27,280 nt of DNA, taken from a virus. Position numbers and translations under genes: made by a program. This document shows positions 1,978-27,280 of this stretch, piece by piece. Where the stretch lies: the IMG/VR virus record IMGVR_UViG_3300030035_000142, positions 1 to 27,280 of that record; one strand, given 5' to 3'. The notes below the pieces were generated by a model. That model had not been told where the DNA came from and ran no database searches. It worked only from the letters and a program-made list of their open reading frames with translations. Numbering within the stretch: the stretch's first letter is position 1; each line of letters starts with the position of its first letter.

Positions 1978-1985
1978 GGTGTTTG

Positions 1986-4130
1986 TTAAGCTGGTCCGTA
2001 GGGGTAGAAGGTGCCTCCGAAGACGGGTATCTGGATCATGCCCAGCGCGTACTGCGTCACCTGGTCGTCTTCGATGTCGGCTATCAGAAAGGAATAGTCG
2101 AAGTTGACACCCGGTTTTTCTTGGGCAAGCATGATAGGATAAACGGTCCCCGGTATGCCAGATACGTCCGCGCCCGTCAGTTTGGCGTCCTGGTCGAAGT
2201 GGACGTTGAGCCATACTTCCCCGCTGGTTTGGGGGATAGTCACCCACGAGGAACCGGAACCGCCCCCCTGCGGATATTTGCCGAGCAGCGAGCCGTTCAG
2301 ATAGAGCGCGCCGGGCTTCATCTGCGCCCCGGTGATGGCTCCCTCCGTATCTTTCTGCAAGCGCACCTGAAAGCCGTATTCCGGCGCGGGCGTGGATTCT
2401 CCCGTGGATTTGGTGATGTGCTGGCTGATGGTGGGGGATTCCGGCTTGGGGTCAAAGCCGTATTCCGTCGATTCCGGCGCCCCCTGCATGTTTTCCAGCG
2501 TGGAAGAAATGTTAGAAACGGAATTAATTTCATTGAGCGAAAGCAAATCTTCAACCCCAAGTTGATTTGGCGCGCCGTAGGACAGGGAAATCGCGTTGGT
2601 CTGCAGGTCGCGCGAAACGGTTTGAATCATGGTGTTGATGTTCTGCCACTCTGGGTTGCCTCCCAGCAGCGAGACGCGCCGGCCCATGTATTGCCGCGTC
2701 TGCGCTTCTCCCAGCGCGACAAAGGAAATAGAGCCGTCCCAGGGCAATTCCTGCATGGATTCCCATACCGTTTTGGCAATGTCCCCATAGGGCACTCCTT
2801 CCGACGGTTCCGGCGATTCCCCTTCTTCCGGGCCGTTGGAGGGCTGTTCCCCGTTGTAGATGCCGTCAATGGGGTAGCTCGCGTAGGGGCGGTCCATGGT
2901 GACCAGATCCACCGAGAATTCTTCCCAGAAGCAGGGCACGCCTTGCAGGGTCCCCACATTCTTGAATTTCTCCCTCCACTTGGCCGGGGCGCTTTCCGGG
3001 ATGGCAAGACGCTGCTTGACGGTGGCGTTGCACCATTGCGGGCGGATGGATTTGGTATGAATTTGCCCGTCCGTCAGTTCATAGCCTGTGGCGGCGGTGT
3101 TGTAGCCTCGCGGCTTGTCTTCCTCCGTTCCGTCCCAGGGCTTCCCGGTGATGGTCGGATCCTGGTCATAGACGGCGATTGCTCCTACATCTTTCATCCA
3201 CGGGAAATGATGTTTCCAGAAACTGTTGATCATGTCGTTCTGGTCAATCCTGGTCCCCGTCACTTTCATGCGCTGGTAAGACAGGCTGCCGGCCCTGGTG
3301 CCCTGCACCGGCTGCGGATCTTCTACCGGCTCCCCCGTAGAACTGTATTTGGAGTAGTAGAAGTCTACTGACGTTCGGTAAACAATGGAGTGCGGCAAGG
3401 TCGGGTCCCCGTCTTCCGGGTATTTGGACAGGTAGGAGACGCGGTAGCCGTTGCTGCCGGTGGTTTCCGCGACGATAGCCACGCAGGGCGGTACGAGGTC
3501 GCCCCGGGGGACCAGGGAAACATCCATAGACTTGACCGTCGCCGTCGGCTGCAAGGGAAGCGCGATGGGCGTCAGGGCGTCATAGTCCGTGATGATGAGC
3601 TTGGGGCGCGCGCCGCTGTAGTCGTAGTAGGAAACCATGCGGGGCGACCAGCGGCGGATGGATTGAAGGAGGCTGCTCAGCGTATCGCAGGAGGCGTTCC
3701 ACGGAATCAGCATCTTGTCGTCGCTGATACGCAGCTCGTAGTCCGCCGGGTGGTGTTTGGCGAGGTTCAGCACCCGGGAGAGTGCGGAGGCAATGCTTAT
3801 CTTGGGAATGATGCCGCCCCCTCCGCTGACTTTATTCCACATGGAAAAGACCGGCTTCCATTCGGAATCCAGCGCAAAGCAGTTGTCCAGCCAATACCAG
3901 GGATCGGAAAAGACGATTTTCCACGCACGGGAAGAGCCGCTGTAGGTCTTTTCGATGCTGGAAACGAGGCCGGAAAGAATGGTGTTCCCGTTTTGGGAGA
4001 TGGAGACAGTATCGAACTGTTGGAAGGGTAAGACCTCCCCCAGCGTTCGCACGGGATAAACCGCGGTGATGGCGGAGGAGGAAAAGCTTTGCTGGTCGTG
4101 GGTCAGGCTCGACGGCTTGAGGCCCAGCAA
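1986..4130 (-). CDS. Large distal tail protein (714 aa from TTG; possible AGG start at 4157)
   Basis: Long ORF directly downstream of the tape-measure region, with no recognisable enzymatic motif. The function call rests on position and size. The first canonical start is TTG 4130. The frame is open back to TAA 4181-4179 with an in-frame AGG at 4157-4155. Confidence 0.55.
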   Translation of the reverse strand: MLGLKPSSLTHDQQSFSSSAITAVYPVRTLGEVLPFQQFDTVSISQNGNTILSGLVSSIEKTYSGSSRAWKIVFSDPWYWLDNCFALDSEWKPVFSMWNKVSGGGGIIPKISIASALSRVLNLAKHHPADYELRISDDKMLIPWNASCDTLSSLLQSIRRWSPRMVSYYDYSGARPKLIITDYDALTPIALPLQPTATVKSMDVSLVPRGDLVPPCVAIVAETTGSNGYRVSYLSKYPEDGDPTLPHSIVYRTSVDFYYSKYSSTGEPVEDPQPVQGTRAGSLSYQRMKVTGTRIDQNDMINSFWKHHFPWMKDVGAIAVYDQDPTITGKPWDGTEEDKPRGYNTAATGYELTDGQIHTKSIRPQWCNATVKQRLAIPESAPAKWREKFKNVGTLQGVPCFWEEFSVDLVTMDRPYASYPIDGIYNGEQPSNGPEEGESPEPSEGVPYGDIAKTVWESMQELPWDGSISFVALGEAQTRQYMGRRVSLLGGNPEWQNINTMIQTVSRDLQTNAISLSYGAPNQLGVEDLLSLNEINSVSNISSTLENMQGAPESTEYGFDPKPESPTISQHITKSTGESTPAPEYGFQVRLQKDTEGAITGAQMKPGALYLNGSLLGKYPQGGGSGSSWVTIPQTSGEVWLNVHFDQDAKLTGADVSGIPGTVYPIMLAQEKPGVNFDYSFLIADIEDDQVTQYALGMIQIPVFGGTFYPYGPA

Positions 4131-10662: not shown

Positions 10663-11067
10663 TTATTTAATAGTGAAATGCTTGAAAAACGCCACCGCGG
10701 CGGGGGCGGTAATGACGAACTCCGGGTAGTCGCGGTCCGTAAAAATCCTGCGCCCGCCCTGTGGATTGACGGCTTCCACGGCCAGATACACCGCCTCCAC
10801 TCCCACAATGGGGTCATCCTCATTGACAGGATCCGGGTAATACCAATCCTGTGTTGCCCACACCTGGACGGCCTGCCAATCCTCACCCAATCCCACCAGC
10901 GCGGCCACTACGGCGGCCATGGCCGGGGTCTGGTTCGCCGGAATCTCGTCCTGCGTATAGCGGTCTATGCGGGTGTACCCTTCCTCGTCCTGGTAAATGG
11001 CCGCCAGGCCGAATTCATCCCATTGACCGGGTTTCGGGAACTGTATTTGTATCTCGGAATTATTCAT
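10663..11067 (-). CDS. Hypothetical acidic protein downstream of the fibre gene (fibre-assembly candidate by position only)
   Basis: 134-aa ORF. Its ATG overlaps the fibre stop (ATGA). No motif recognised. Confidence 0.45.
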
Positions 11068-13004
11068 GATTCTATCGGCACGTTAATATCTTCAAAAGCG
11101 GCGGTTGCCTCGGATTCAACGGCATTCGTTCCTATTGCGTTCAACCCGTAAAAGAGGGGGTTCACATTGCCCGGCTGGTAGTAGGCATATTCTCCGGGCC
11201 CCGCATAAACGGAAGCCGTGCCGCTGGTGGTGTTGATCACATCCGTCACCCACCTGGAAATGCCGACGCCGGTCTCAAAATTGGAGACGCCCCGGCAGGT
11301 GGCGATCTTGAACAGGTTGTTGGTCTGTGCCCCCGTGACCAGCAGCCAGAGGCCTCCCAGGTTTTCATAAACGCTGCTGTTGGCAACCGTCTGCTGCTGG
11401 TAAATAATCTTGCACACCGTCCACGGGACGGGCTCGTTTTGCGTCGCCGGGATAAAGCTGGTCGTCGTCTTGACCTGCCATCCATCGGCGGACGTCAGCG
11501 CATAAATTTCACGCACGCGCACCGTATAGCCGTTGCGCGCCGTATCGCGCACGTTGTCAAAGGTGATGTCCAGAATCTCCCCGGAATTAAATGCCAGGTC
11601 ATTGCCCGGAATAATCGTGTAGGAGTCGGTGGTAAGGTCTGTCCTGATTGTTTTCGCCCCCCGTCCGATGCCCATCGTTATCTTCGCCGCGGCCGTGGCC
11701 CGCCAGACAAATGAAAAGCCGGCCCAGGAAGAATAATTCCATTGGGAACTGGGGCCTTCAAAAGGGGCCTGAATAGTCGTGTGAGCGCCCGCGGAAATTC
11801 CTATGCGGGCCATCTGGTAGGGAACCGTTTTAGTCACCGTTGCCGTGCCGGTAGTTGTCAGCGTGTCCGTATTCAGGAAAGCCGCCGCCGTATAAGCATT
11901 GGCTGCGCCTCCCATGCCCGCGGCATACAGGCGGTTGACGCCGGATTCATTGGTCGGCGCTCCCACGGCCAGCGGGATGTTGACGCCTCCATTGGCGTTG
12001 ATGGCGCTTGAAAACGTGGATGTCCCCGCGCAGTTGAAGCTGGCGCCCTGGCTGATATTCAGGATTCCGGTCTCTACCATGAATGTCCCTCTCAGCCATC
12101 CGCCCGACCGAAGATCGACCGACTGGTAAAACCGGGTGATCCCGTAAATCTGGTTCAGCGTGCCGGCGCTTCCGCTGCCGTCCGGGTTGTTGACCACCAG
12201 AGGCCCGTTCACGGTAGCTGATTCGGCTGTCAGGGCTCCCCCGATATTCACATCGCCAACGTTGGATGTCAGAGTACCAGGATCTCCCTTTTCCCCTTGC
12301 GGCCCCTGGGGGCCTGCCGGACCTTCCGGCCCCTGGGGGCCCTCCGGGCCTTGAGGCCCCGCCGGTCCTGTATCTCCCTTCGGTCCCTGCTCCCCGGTTT
12401 CGCCCTGCGGCCCGCGTTCCCCGGTTTCGCCGCGTGGACCTTGCGGCCCTTCGGGTCCGGTTTCACCCCGTTCACCCTGCGGGCCTGACGGTCCCTGAGG
12501 ACCAACATCCCCGCGGGGAATCGTGAAATTGAGCAGATAGGATCCTGATTCAGTTCCCTTGACGGCTTCCGCGTTGGCGGGCGTCCCCGGTTCCCCGGTG
12601 GTGACCTGACCCACGGACAGATTAAAATTCTCGGCGTACTTTTTGGCCTGCTCCGCGTACCAGGCGGCGCTGGACGCGTTATCAAGCATGATTTGCACGC
12701 AGCCGCTTCCTTCCGGCAGCTGCACGACGACCGCGCCCGCCACGGCCTGCTGTTCGTCCGGCAAGTCCGGCGTCACCCGGCCCGAAGAAACAAAGCATCC
12801 GTAAAGGAACGGGCTTTCCTCGTTTCCGTCGTCCATGAAGACGTCATAGGACCACATGCCCGCAGGCACCGAAGCCCAGGAAATTACGCCATTGCCCTCG
12901 TCATCGCGTGAAAAGCCGAACTCCGTCACGCCCGTCTTGAGACGGACAGCGCCGCGCAGGGTGACGCCGCTCATATCGACGGGATCGCCCTGAAAATCCA
13001 CCAC
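11064..13004 (-). CDS. Collagen-like repeat tail fibre protein (646 aa from GTG; possible AGG start at 13070)
   Basis: About 26 uninterrupted G-X-Y triplets ([76 protein letters not shown]), flanked by a beta-rich N-domain and a ~400-aa C-terminal domain. Confidence 0.8.
12276..12512 (-). repeat. Collagen triple-helix (G-X-Y)n coding repeat
   Basis: Read directly from the translation of residues ~165-243 of the fibre ORF. Confidence 0.9.
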
Positions 13005-25815: not shown

Positions 25816-26340
25816 CTATATCCCTTCTTTCTCTTTTACTCCTTCGCCAAATGTGGGTGAGAGCTGTATTTTTCTGCCTTGAACAGTATTGATCTTTAAC
25901 GGTTTCTGGATGTATAGACACGCTGTCAAAAGGCTTATTTCTGCGGCGCGGTTTATATCAGGGAAGCGGCCGCTGGGTCGGATTTCCCGAACCCTTCCGC
26001 CAGGGAGAACATACAGTAATCCCCAAAGTCCCGGCACGTCATCAAAAGTGATGACTCCCGGCTCGCATATGTAATACCGATACATACCCATTCCTTTTTT
26101 AGGATGGATGCGGAACGGCTTTTTAAGGTCTGCCAAAAAGTCCGCTCGGCTGGTTTTTGCCTCCACAAGAACGCTCGCATATCCGCCAAACCCTATGGCG
26201 TCAGGCTGCTCGTTAGTAATAATGCAATTCGGTTCAGCGATCGCTACCCGGCAACGTTTAGTTCCCATAAGCCATCGTTCTGCTATTTCGCACAGTTCCC
26301 GGTGCGTCCGTGGAATTAAAGATGTTGGTTTGCGTGGCAT
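25816..26340 (-). CDS. PD-(D/E)XK-fold nuclease-like protein (MmcB-like)
   Basis: QPDAIGF...ASVLVEAKTSRADFLADLKK fits D...(E/D)xK with the SraDf..D..K pattern. ATG start 1 nt after the methyltransferase stop. Confidence 0.5.
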   Translation of the reverse strand: MPRKPTSLIPRTHRELCEIAERWLMGTKRCRVAIAEPNCIITNEQPDAIGFGGYASVLVEAKTSRADFLADLKKPFRIHPKKGMGMYRYYICEPGVITFDDVPGLWGLLYVLPGGRVREIRPSGRFPDINRAAEISLLTACLYIQKPLKINTVQGRKIQLSPTFGEGVKEKEGI

Positions 26341-26341
26341 A

Positions 26342-27280
26342 TCAAAAAAGCGTCAGTTGGGGGTTGTTTTTCATGATTCTGCCGAGCAGAACCCGGAATG
26401 CAGTTGCCGCCACAGCAGGTACTTGCCCATTGCCAAGGGCTTTAATGCGGTCCACTCTAGCGGCCACCCCATGAGCCACTCGACCCACGTCGGGTTCAGC
26501 TGACCACCATTCCCCGCAGTCATTTGTCTCCGCTCGTCCGGCGTGATAATTCCCTTGGTTTCCAGGTCTTTCATTTTCTGAAAACTCCCCGTCCCCCCGC
26601 ACATCCCCTTGGTGCGGGGTGTTGGAAACTGTGAAACCATAGTTATCAATTTCTTCCCTGTTGCCCGGTTGATTTCCTTGCCGCCGCAACTGGCGGTTGG
26701 AGTAGGAAACATCCGGACAAATTCGGACAATCCCTGTTGCCTGCTGTTTGGGCCACGTCTCTTGTGATCCGAGGCAAGGGGGCTTGGGAACATCTCTACG
26801 AACTCGTATGGATTGGGCGGCTTGTTGCCCTCCCGAAACTTCTTGCTCCGATTCTTCCCGGAAGCGGTTGGAGTTCCGATCCATACACCTCTTTTCAAAG
26901 AGGCTTTCCGGGAATTCGACCCTCCGTCGAGACCTTTCGTTGTCGCTGTTGGCCACATCATCCCCGGCATCCAGCCTGTTGTCGCTACATCCATCAGGCT
27001 CTTGGGTCCCCGTGAATGGCTCCCCTTGTTGGGGGCGTTGCAAGCCGTTGGCGTGGGGATCATGTGCAAGTATCCAGATGCGCTTTCTGACGTGCGGGGC
27101 TCCCACATCGTCCGCTCCCAGCACAAGCCATTCCGCATCGTACCCGATTTCGGCAAGATCACCGAGGACTCTGGCAAGTCCTCGTCCCACAAGCAAAGGT
27201 GAGTTTTCCAGGAATGCGAATTTCGGTCGTACCTCATTGATAATTCGGTGCATTTCCCGCCAGAGCCCGGAGCGGGCGCC
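26342..27280 (-). CDS. DNA cytosine-5 methyltransferase, 5' end outside the window (frame A; a second fully open frame overlaps it)
   Basis: Frame A carries LWREMHRIINEVRPKFAFLENSP (motif IV-VI region, ENV-like), GYDAEWLVLGADDVGAPHVRKRIWILA (motif VIII-like) and the C-terminal EPDVGRVAHGVAARVDRIKALGNGQVPAVA (motif X-like). It is open to the window edge. Confidence 0.7.
   Translation of the reverse strand, partial: GARSGLWREMHRIINEVRPKFAFLENSPLLVGRGLARVLGDLAEIGYDAEWLVLGADDVGAPHVRKRIWILAHDPHANGLQRPQQGEPFTGTQEPDGCSDNRLDAGDDVANSDNERSRRRVEFPESLFEKRCMDRNSNRFREESEQEVSGGQQAAQSIRVRRDVPKPPCLGSQETWPKQQATGIVRICPDVSYSNRQLRRQGNQPGNREEIDNYGFTVSNTPHQGDVRGDGEFSENERPGNQGNYHAGRAETNDCGEWWSAEPDVGRVAHGVAARVDRIKALGNGQVPAVAATAFRVLLGRIMKNNPQLTLF

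Follow-up and report, generated by a model that had tools for sequence, protein, structure and literature searches.

Introduction

The encoding of one cytosine-5 (C5) methyltransferase in two reading frames has so far been described for a single enzyme, M.EcoHK31I, whose primary description is reportedly that of Lee, Kam and Shaw in 1995. M.EcoHK31I, from E. coli HK31, is a natural heterodimeric C5-methyltransferase, in which the beta chain is encoded in another frame inside the alpha gene; both chains are required, motif IX resides on beta, and the first ~42 residues of beta are dispensable (PMC2836561; PMC3404938). A different natural division is that of M.AquI, from Agmenellum quadruplicatum, whose alpha subunit carries motifs I-VIII and whose beta subunit carries part of the variable region together with motifs IX-X (PMC3404938). 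Here we analyze a C5-methyltransferase gene at the end of a viral sequence of 27,280 nucleotides (nt), namely positions 1 to 27,280 of the IMG/VR record IMGVR_UViG_3300030035_000142 (hereafter, the window; G+C content, 56.1%). In this gene, two overlapping frames of the minus strand, denoted A and B, are both open up to the window edge. Conservation of this layout extends to thousands of genomes of phages and bacteria, and the literature that we searched contains no description of this two-frame methyltransferase family.

The locus resembles M.EcoHK31I in several respects. A second open reading frame (ORF) lies in another frame inside the alpha gene, here frame B, at +1; the dispensable N-terminus of the beta chain has a parallel in an unselected leader of frame B; the alternative frame of M.EcoHK31I is started internally, which is also the case in two Firmicutes variants of the family considered here (L062 and L162; relatives are designated by L and P numbers); and motifs I-VIII and X are found on the alpha-like frame A. 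There are also clear differences. In M.EcoHK31I a short beta ORF is nested in alpha, whereas the ORFs of the present locus cover the same stretch (375 and 377 codons) and start 4 nt apart. The target-recognition domain is assigned to alpha in M.EcoHK31I, but the region between motifs VIII and IX is selected here in the beta-like frame. Lastly, M.EcoHK31I belongs to a restriction-modification pair, whereas this is an orphan gene in a phage replication module, adjacent to a replication initiator, a DnaC-like loader and a terminase.

Like M.AquI, the family would have a natural two-chain split within the variable region, and one of its subfamilies, represented by L138 and P0176, has the same division between chains. 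However, PMC3404938 describes M.AquI as two subunits without referring to a further frame that runs through the coding region of alpha, and the window's own family keeps motif X on the alpha-like chain. In comparison with the monomeric enzymes M.HhaI and M.HaeIII (PF00145), the catalytic motifs are the same, and are in the same order in a composite reading of the two frames, but no single frame holds all of them. Two products from one same-strand DNA segment are also obtained from programmed-frameshift genes such as dnaX and the IS3 transposases; unlike in those genes, there is no conserved slippery heptamer here, and the zero frame does not end downstream of the switch. The overprinted phage genes Rz/Rz1 of lambda (cited in PMC9409062) offer a similar likeness, except that the Rz1 gene is short and nested and that its product is unrelated, whereas the overlap here is ~1.1 kb and the products would be halves of one enzyme.

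Our analysis makes it probable that the locus encodes one orphan phage-type C5-methyltransferase in the form of two polypeptides, translated from two overlapping frames of the same strand, which assemble with each other.

Results

Motifs of the two frames

That both frames are stop-free from the window edge, as the original prediction stated, was borne out, as were all of the coordinates and peptides it quoted (Table 1); the third minus-strand frame at the locus reaches a stop after 14 codons. The gene start lies beyond the window edge. The missing 5' end, which the original prediction had wished to see, is supplied by the closest relative, L167, which is 95% identical to the window at the nucleotide level and in which the complete frames A and B are 375 and 377 amino acids (aa) long, respectively. 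Its 5' end reads AAAGGAGGGCGA-GTG-A-ATG-AGC, with frame A starting at the GTG.

Frame A carries the catalytic core, as had been predicted. It alone matches PF00145 (aa 3-111, E 6.5e-14), exceeding the Pfam gathering score (52.5 vs 22 bits). It scores 81.3 against the NCBIfam model TIGR00675, below the cut-off of 100.65, and only its N-terminal half matches. Motif I (FxGxG, which binds S-adenosylmethionine) and motif IV (PCQ, with the catalytic Cys) are located outside the window, but are found in frame A of L167, P0058 and P0107, in the forms LFAGAGGG and GGFPCQDIS. Motifs VI (FLENSP) and VIII (PHVRKRIW) are both on the frame A chain, i.e., on the same chain as motif IV. The N-terminal half of frame A aligns with residues 15-173 of M.HhaI and 2-165 of M.HaeIII, that is, with motifs I-VIII. 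At the C-terminus, what the original prediction called a motif-X-like end is a genuine motif X, RIKALGNGQVPAVAATAF, which is under selection and which hhalign, run with family profiles against the verified M.HhaI and M.HaeIII sequences, pairs with KQFGNSVV of M.HhaI and KMIGNAVP of M.HaeIII. No motif IX (R.LT.rE.arLqGFPd.f) under frame A's own selection was found in frame A, and none of 171 close homologues has motifs I, VIII, IX and X together in one frame. Between motifs VIII and X, frame A consists of 40-220 aa of hydrophilic filler with no protein-level selection; in the window, the hydrophilic middle, which had been put at ~200 aa, is a linker of 190 aa.

Frame B is 91% identical to P0001. 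Of the five or six repeated PTP-type modules that had been suggested, six were located; their number among relatives is 0 to 5 by a stricter pattern, and no DNA-level repeats were found among the six. The modules presumably constitute the target-recognition region. The only motif IX-like block at the locus, LNPTWVEWLMGWPLEW, is that of frame B (hereafter, the LNP block). The statement in the original prediction that both peptide styles occur among annotated phage methyltransferases proved accurate: PHROGs holds a separate family labelled 'DNA methyltransferase' for each frame, namely phrog_363 for frame A (E 2e-34) and phrog_1008 for frame B (E 3.6e-21).

Protein-level selection alternates between the frames

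To establish which frame is selected where, we used an N-terminal block alignment of 156 ungapped codons, from 40 sequences dereplicated at 80% nucleotide identity, and a mismatch analysis of 81 gene pairs of 70-97% identity, in which each nucleotide is classed as A1 (= B3), A2 (= B1) or A3 (= B2) according to its codon position in either frame. In the N-terminal block, the entropy at frame A codon positions 1, 2 and 3 is 0.63, 0.42 and 1.28 bits, and pairwise identities are 72% (frame A), 42% (frame B) and 40% (third frame, non-coding). Over motifs I-VIII, mismatch frequencies at A1/A2/A3 are 0.154/0.083/0.306, indicating that frame A is selected. Between motifs VIII and IX they are 0.52/0.29/0.31, and in the LNP block 0.18/0.05/0.04, so that it is frame B that is selected in both. 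In motif X they are 0.17/0.10/0.32, and selection is again on frame A. The window compared with its own relatives gives the same picture, with A1/A2/A3 counts of 30/16/51 for motifs I-VIII, 155/77/69 between VIII and IX, 7/2/2 in the LNP block and 3/3/22 in motif X. Per-nucleotide entropies show that the wobble switches from B3 to A3 within ~5 codons past GWT, and that the residues of the frame B tail, at the motif X nucleotides, change freely.

These results demonstrate that protein-level selection runs from A (motifs I-VIII) to B (modules and LNP block) and back to A (motif X). That is, the selected segments reproduce the canonical order of C5-methyltransferases: I-VIII, variable region, IX and X. 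In each frame one part is selected, while for the remainder, the passenger, all that is maintained is the absence of stop codons.

The frame B passenger over the catalytic domain was examined as a possible conserved domain of ~160 aa, an idea that we have mostly rejected because its identity equals that of the non-coding third frame. Against a shuffle null, the identity of frame B in this block is 0.42 vs 0.31, and that of the third frame is 0.40 vs 0.31. Since the third frame shows an equal excess, that of frame B reflects residual relatedness of the sequences, and the first ~100 residues of frame B are an unselected leader. The exception is found at columns ~104-130, where frame B reads ...SWKT...LPKWGMxRNG over motifs VI-VIII of frame A. 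Here, the identity of frame B exceeds the shuffle null by 0.17 to 0.20, vs 0.12 to 0.14 for the third frame, and one Gly codon of frame A is GGG in all of the 40 diverse sequences, which fixes a Gly in frame B. The corresponding nucleotides of the window are therefore a probable zone of dual constraint, in which conservation specific to frame B is modest.

The LNP block provides a second such zone. Its bases read (A)EPDVGRVAHGVAARV in frame A, and in particular nt 26459-26500, which contribute to the LNP motif in frame B, are read as AEPDVGRVAHGVAA in frame A. A Val of frame B is encoded by GTC or GTA in 38 of the 40 sequences, and never by GTG or GTT, while the next residue of frame A is Arg in 40/40. 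A Thr is encoded only by ACA or ACC, which yields Arg in frame A in 38/40, and a Gly by GGG in 35/40, which yields Val in frame A (35-37/40). The synonymous choices of frame B are thus restricted in such a way that frame A residues are kept. The frame A peptide EPDVGRVAHGVAA, which the original prediction had singled out, is accordingly for the most part the alternative reading of the frame B block, yet several of its residues are constrained. In all, there are two short stretches in which both readings are under selection. This dual constraint argues for two chains, since a single chain would contain only one reading of each zone.

Both passengers are kept open

Among the loci that were collected with frame B, from many phyla, 141 have a recognizable motif I, and 128 of these have two frames that are uninterrupted over their whole length. 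Within the frame B ORF, internal stops of frame A are absent from ~140/154 loci, whereas the third frame has 9-32 stops. As a null model, we shuffled synonymous codons within each of the 128 fully dual genes. The shuffles predict 4.7 stops in frame B, with 0.6% of shuffles open, and 9.2 in frame A, with 0.02% open. For the passengers taken separately, 2.4 stops are expected in frame B over the catalytic (N-terminal) block (6.5% of shuffles open) and 3.6 in frame A over the middle (7.8% open); zero are observed in 119 of 119 genes in either case. As a control, we counted stops in the off-frames of flanking ORFs of >=250 codons in the same loci: there are 3.8-4.7 per 100 codons, and no more than 3 of 450 such off-frames are open. 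A second search, with frame A alone as query, was carried out to check the ascertainment bias of the frame B query, and the result was the same: in 64 of the 67 full-length genes of frame A, frame B runs without a stop at least as far as the last 12 codons, and in two of the three exceptions (L226 and L243) the first such stop is 13-17 codons from the end. The third frame of these 67 loci has a mean of 17.4 stops.

The shuffles and the flanking-gene control thus agree with the expectation that so long an off-frame is unlikely by chance. We therefore give next to no credence to an artefact, be it an indel of sequencing or assembly, a pseudogene, or chance openness in GC-rich DNA. To be sure, there are many long spurious ORFs on both strands of the window at 56% GC, and local homopolymers would fit single-indel explanations, but chance is excluded statistically, there is purifying selection on both frames, and the identical architecture is present in complete phage genomes and in finished chromosomes of several phyla. 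An indel or homopolymer error at the CCCC run, or at ACC|GC near 26450, was likewise rejected, as the same layout occurs in finished genomes of distant taxa. The suggestion of a frameshifted gene, explained by a single indel, is thereby contradicted: the layout recurs in Salmonella, Acinetobacter, Pseudomonas, Actinobacteria and Verrucomicrobia. Genuine dual coding, the first of the explanations originally put forward, agrees with all of these observations, i.e., with >90% of diverse relatives, from hundreds of lineages, being open in both frames, with purifying selection found in complementary segments of both frames when relatives are aligned, and with the two zones of dual constraint.

A few loci have one or two stops in either frame A or frame B, with the remainder of that frame open: L054/L059 (frame A, codon 163), L085 (codon 180), L086 (codons 64 and 257) and L200 (frame B, codon 137). 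Possible explanations are pseudogenization, errors in sequencing, and readthrough or recoding.

Start sites and switch points

In 121 of the 128 loci, an ATG of frame B is found 4 nt after the start of frame A (RTG AAT GAG; RTGAATG). These tandem starts lie behind one Shine-Dalgarno sequence, GGAGG, and the frame B ATG is directly preceded by a TGA in frame B. Two variants were observed. In L138 the start is ATGTGG, with the GTG of frame A 2 nt after the ATG of frame B, and in L062 and L162 frame B has an AAGGAG-N8-ATG of its own, ~50 codons into frame A, as its start. In the latter two loci (from an Oscillospiraceae metagenome-assembled genome and an IMG/VR contig), frame A is divergent (SLFSGIGG, ENVAGIV, GNAVVP), MGWP is replaced by MGFP, and frame B is open at 2189-3094; the family is thus broader than the pattern used for collecting loci.

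An alternative to two polypeptides is a single-chain enzyme produced by two programmed frameshifts, +1 from A to B after motif VIII (junction 1) and -1 from B to A after GWT (junction 2), or an A-B isoform produced by one shift; the unshifted products would then be by-products. This alternative would account for the selected information being arranged as A, B, A in canonical motif order. The window does have CCC-C at junction 1 and TTA-AAG at junction 2, and the B-to-A composite is collinear in hhalign with motifs IX-X of M.HhaI through motif X, albeit without significance (E 0.06) and with a spacing ~7 residues shorter than in M.HhaI. TTAAAG is present at junction 2 in 91 of 128 loci (71%), the others having TTAAGG, TGCGCT, TTAGGG, etc. 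However, ~29% of the loci thus have no A-AAG at junction 2, no sequence is conserved at junction 1 among the 128 loci, and no universal slippery motif is found among them at either switch point. In addition, neither frame terminates past the putative shift sites, and the alternative frame is also open upstream of them; the first (L/S)WPTP module of frame B overlaps WIVA of frame A at junction 1; and two successive shifts would be very inefficient. Double frameshifting explains the A-B-A order alone. It leaves unaccounted for the openness of frame B over its first ~160 codons, its ATG, the openness of frame A in the middle, and the zones in which both readings are selected. A frameshift product would need neither passenger to be open; therefore, that both are open argues for two polypeptides. 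Since frame B is open from its own conserved ATG and frame A through the middle, and since the slippery motifs are not conserved, the suggested isoforms from programmed frameshifting found no support, and we regard this mechanism as unlikely.

Hybrid ORFs in databases

Several database ORFs pass from one frame into the other. In P0004, P0008, P0046, P0057 and P0071, frame B continues into frame A directly after ...GMCGG, at a run of six G. These hybrids, together with P0022, P0032, P0042, P0047 and P0069, are clusters of only 1-2 sequences, and we have therefore rejected them as evidence of recoding; intact forms of frame B are found in clusters of 27-113 members. Hybrids are the expected product of any indel where both frames are open. 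The G6 run could be a place where errors of sequencing or assembly recur, or a real hotspot of slippage, by which the frame B modules are joined to motif X of frame A without the LNP block.

A further alternative is therefore that indels toggle the gene at such homopolymers, giving A/B hybrids with phase-variable specificity or on/off switching, and that both frames are open for this reason. At least five hybrids do switch at the same G6 run, with others switching elsewhere, and the window carries that run. Nevertheless, the disparity in cluster size fits errors or rare mutants, motif IX or motif X is lost in the hybrids, and the homopolymers are not conserved outside the Akkermansia clade, whereas the dual-frame layout is. 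We consider this alternative very improbable.

Frame B as a probable part of the methyltransferase

It is also conceivable that frame A alone is a complete small methyltransferase and frame B an overprinted separate protein, e.g., a regulator or an anti-defence factor. Motifs I-VIII and X are indeed all in frame A, curated pipelines annotate only this frame, and frame B has no confident predicted fold and no matching Pfam or NCBIfam model. Yet the region between VIII and X in frame A is unselected filler, so that frame A would lack a selected target-recognition domain and motif IX, and it is the conserved block of frame B that fits motif IX in pattern and position. The alpha chain of M.EcoHK31I, moreover, is inactive alone (PMC2836561). 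A further indication comes from the L138/P0176 subfamily. In L138 (IMGVR_UViG_3300025687_000775, 361-1590), frame A stops shortly after motif VIII, and in this locus and 11 of 146 representatives (e.g., P0176, P0178, P0258 and P0280) the modules, the LNP block, a spacer and motif X are all on the frame B chain; the spacer of ~100-160 aa after the LNP block is followed by ...PRV...RVDRLKAIGNGQVPAVAALAW, which is motif X. Because motif X is on the frame B chain where frame A ends after VIII, frame B belongs to the methyltransferase. Frame A acting on its own is thus, in our assessment, rather improbable.

The 'PRV..RVDRLKAIGNGQVP' block, which shares the LNP nucleotides in the main family, is separately encoded in this subfamily, and no relic of the LNP motif was found in the alternative frame of the L138 motif X block.

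Distribution of the two-frame layout

When the composite was used as query, it retrieved 375-aa frame A proteins of close relatives, named 'DNA cytosine methyltransferase' of Akkermansia muciniphila, and frame B proteins of 364-409 aa that start with MSYIFSRALVE and have no Pfam domain, besides a few rare hybrids. Salmonella phage S9-5 and Acinetobacter phage ABMM1 each have an annotated methyltransferase gene (244 and 304 aa, respectively) whose +1 frame is wholly open; this frame begins with MSWLFSQAL and ends with ...LNPxWVEWxMGWPIGWTxLRPLxMDKFQxW. A frame B profile yielded 463 confirmed stretches in species-representative genomes, from taxa that include Pseudomonas, Acinetobacter, Akkermansia, Microbacterium, Planctomycetes, Saprospiraceae and Saccharibacteria, and >564 confirmed stretches in IMG/VR. 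Compared with 1.84 billion cluster representatives, the frame B product has 33,616 matches at E <= 1e-3, 18,367 at E <= 1e-10 and 4,222 at E <= 1e-30. Frame A is the one frame called by RefSeq/PGAP. In metagenomes, by contrast, the sole call is mostly frame B, as a 'hypothetical protein'.

The window itself appears to derive from an Akkermansia (pro)phage. Its positions 26200-26367, downstream of the methyltransferase gene, are 84% identical to Akkermansia phage DTMo-2021a (CP084202.1, unannotated), and this identity and the A. muciniphila names of the frame A homologues both point to that origin.

Features and neighboring genes

The features of the locus are collected in Table 1.

Table 1. 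Positions of the features of the two-frame gene in the window
Feature	Position	Strand	Frame	Remarks
Frame A ORF (alpha-like chain)	26342..27280	minus	A	C-terminal 312 codons + stop
Frame A stop, TGA	26342-26344	minus	A	frame open from window edge, 27280
Frame B ORF (beta-like chain)	26371..27279	minus	B	C-terminal 302 codons + stop; offset +1 from frame A
Frame B stop	26371-26373	minus	B	frame open from 27279
Selected segment of A, catalytic large domain, starting right behind motif IV and running through motif VIII	27062..27280	minus	A	wobble at A3
Motif VI, FAFLENSP	27197-27220	minus	A	
Motif VIII, GAPHVRKRIWILA	27065-27103	minus	A	
Reading of B over motifs VI-VIII of A, WKTHLCLWDEDLPESSVILPKSGTMRNG...SGYLH	27064..27210	minus	B	probable dual-constraint zone
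CCCC run at A-to-B switch (junction 1)	27055..27058	minus		candidate +1 slippery or indel site, rejected
Passenger linker, 190 aa	26492..27061	minus	A	rich in R, G, E, Q, N, D; wobble at B3, not A3
Selected variable region, six xPTPxA modules and helical segment before LNP motif	26500..27063	minus	B	
Six xPTPxA modules	27043-27063, 26938-26958, 26863-26883, 26773-26793, 26692-26712, 26611-26631	minus	B	
G6 run, GCGGGGGGAC	26593..26598	minus		several database hybrid ORFs switch from B to A here
Motif IX-like block, LNPTWVEWLMGWPLEWT	26449..26499	minus	B	wobble at B3
TTAAAG at B-to-A switch (junction 2)	26440..26445	minus		TTA AAG in B, ATT AAA G in A
Motif X and helix, RVDRIKALGNGQVPAVAATAFRVLLGRI (RVDRIKALGNGQVP...)	26375..26458	minus	A	selected again; A3 wobble from IGNGQVP onward
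Tail of B, ALKPLAMGKYLLWRQLHSGFCSAES, and stop	26371..26448	minus	B	passenger reading of motif X nucleotides; variability peaks at B2 (= A3)

Directly downstream, an ORF of 174 aa (25816-26340, minus strand) starts 2 nt after the frame A stop (TGATATG). It has no Pfam match, and belongs with phrog_631, of unknown function (E 1e-48). In relatives, the same position is taken by a Dam-like N6-methyltransferase (PF02086; L003-L006) or by an S-adenosylmethionine-dependent methyltransferase (PF13649), the latter being joined, in P0059 and P0089, to the frame B ORF as an in-frame C-terminal extension. As the downstream genes differ, what follows the two-frame gene is a variable slot for a 'second methyltransferase'.

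Elsewhere in the window, an ORF of 646 aa (11064-13004, minus strand) has collagen triple-helix repeats (PF01391, E 1e-14), and presumably encodes a tail-fibre-like protein of this prophage, whose portal is Mu-like. There are also pairs of long antisense ORFs, e.g., 1983-3371 (+) and 1986-4130 (-), of 462 and 714 codons, respectively.

Discussion

We propose the following mechanism for the production of the enzyme from two polypeptides. A single Shine-Dalgarno sequence would serve two adjacent starts, that of frame A at RTG and that of frame B at the ATG 4 nt further on. Chain A would supply motifs I-VIII, a hydrophilic and disordered linker, a block preceding motif X, and motif X itself. Chain B would comprise the unselected leader, followed by the variable xPTPxA modules, presumed to recognize the target, and by the motif IX-like block. 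The two chains would then assemble into the active enzyme, as has been shown for M.EcoHK31I; i.e., by analogy with that enzyme, A and B probably form a heterodimer. This proposal is based on the openness of both passengers, the conserved ATG of frame B, the doubly constrained zones, and the finding that neither switch point has a universal slippery motif.

Several observations weigh against this proposal. The translation of both frames is deduced from sequence, and a translated leader of ~100 aa with no detectable selection is costly. Some additional frameshifting may also take place at junction 2, for which TTAAAG is a plausible -1 site. As to the LNP block, its pattern and position suggest that it is motif IX, in keeping with the original prediction of a methyltransferase-type motif at the end of frame B, and the peptide is indeed there; hhalign places QLNPxWVEWLMGWPxGW on residues 273-289 of M.HhaI, KLHPRECARVMGYPDSY, but this match is weak (E 0.09-0.38), and the E-values of the hhalign comparisons as a whole, 0.06-0.4, are not significant. 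No Pfam match to the C-terminal motifs of PF00145 was obtained with frame B, with B-to-A composites or with the C-terminus of L138 frame B, and in a phmmer search of the PDB with the composite and with pure frame A, the alignment stops at motif VIII. AlphaFold2 gave a predicted local distance difference test score (pLDDT) of 38 for frame B alone (P0001, with an alignment of 73 sequences) and of 43 for a natural A-B fusion, P0032, with a composite alignment. Because the catalytic domain of P0032 was itself left unfolded with this shallow alignment, we take the AlphaFold2 results to be uninformative rather than negative. Finally, the likeness to M.EcoHK31I, in which a single DNA segment encodes two chains in two same-strand frames, is drawn from the published description of that enzyme.

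Beyond the window, the data lean towards the view that cross-phylum orphan C5-methyltransferases of phages and prophages, ~18,000 clusters at 50% identity (E <= 1e-10), are obligate heterodimers, with co-extensive ORFs of 250-400 codons, tandem starts, passenger halves, and specificity modules on the overprinted chain. If so, among the long same-strand dual-coding genes known from prokaryotes and their viruses, this one would have the widest distribution, and one of its subunits is missing from curated annotation. A specificity predicted from the 'variable region' of frame A would then rest on filler. The modules, whose number varies from one to six, are on the chain that is not annotated and probably set the methylation target, which bears on the evasion of restriction by phages. 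With thousands of diverged copies, this same-strand overlap of ~1 kb also constitutes a natural dataset on how frames are shared, in which selected, passenger and doubly constrained segments have been mapped. Natural split C5-methyltransferases are wanted as scaffolds for targeted methylation (PMC2836561), and the two-frame family offers many more of them for enzyme engineering.

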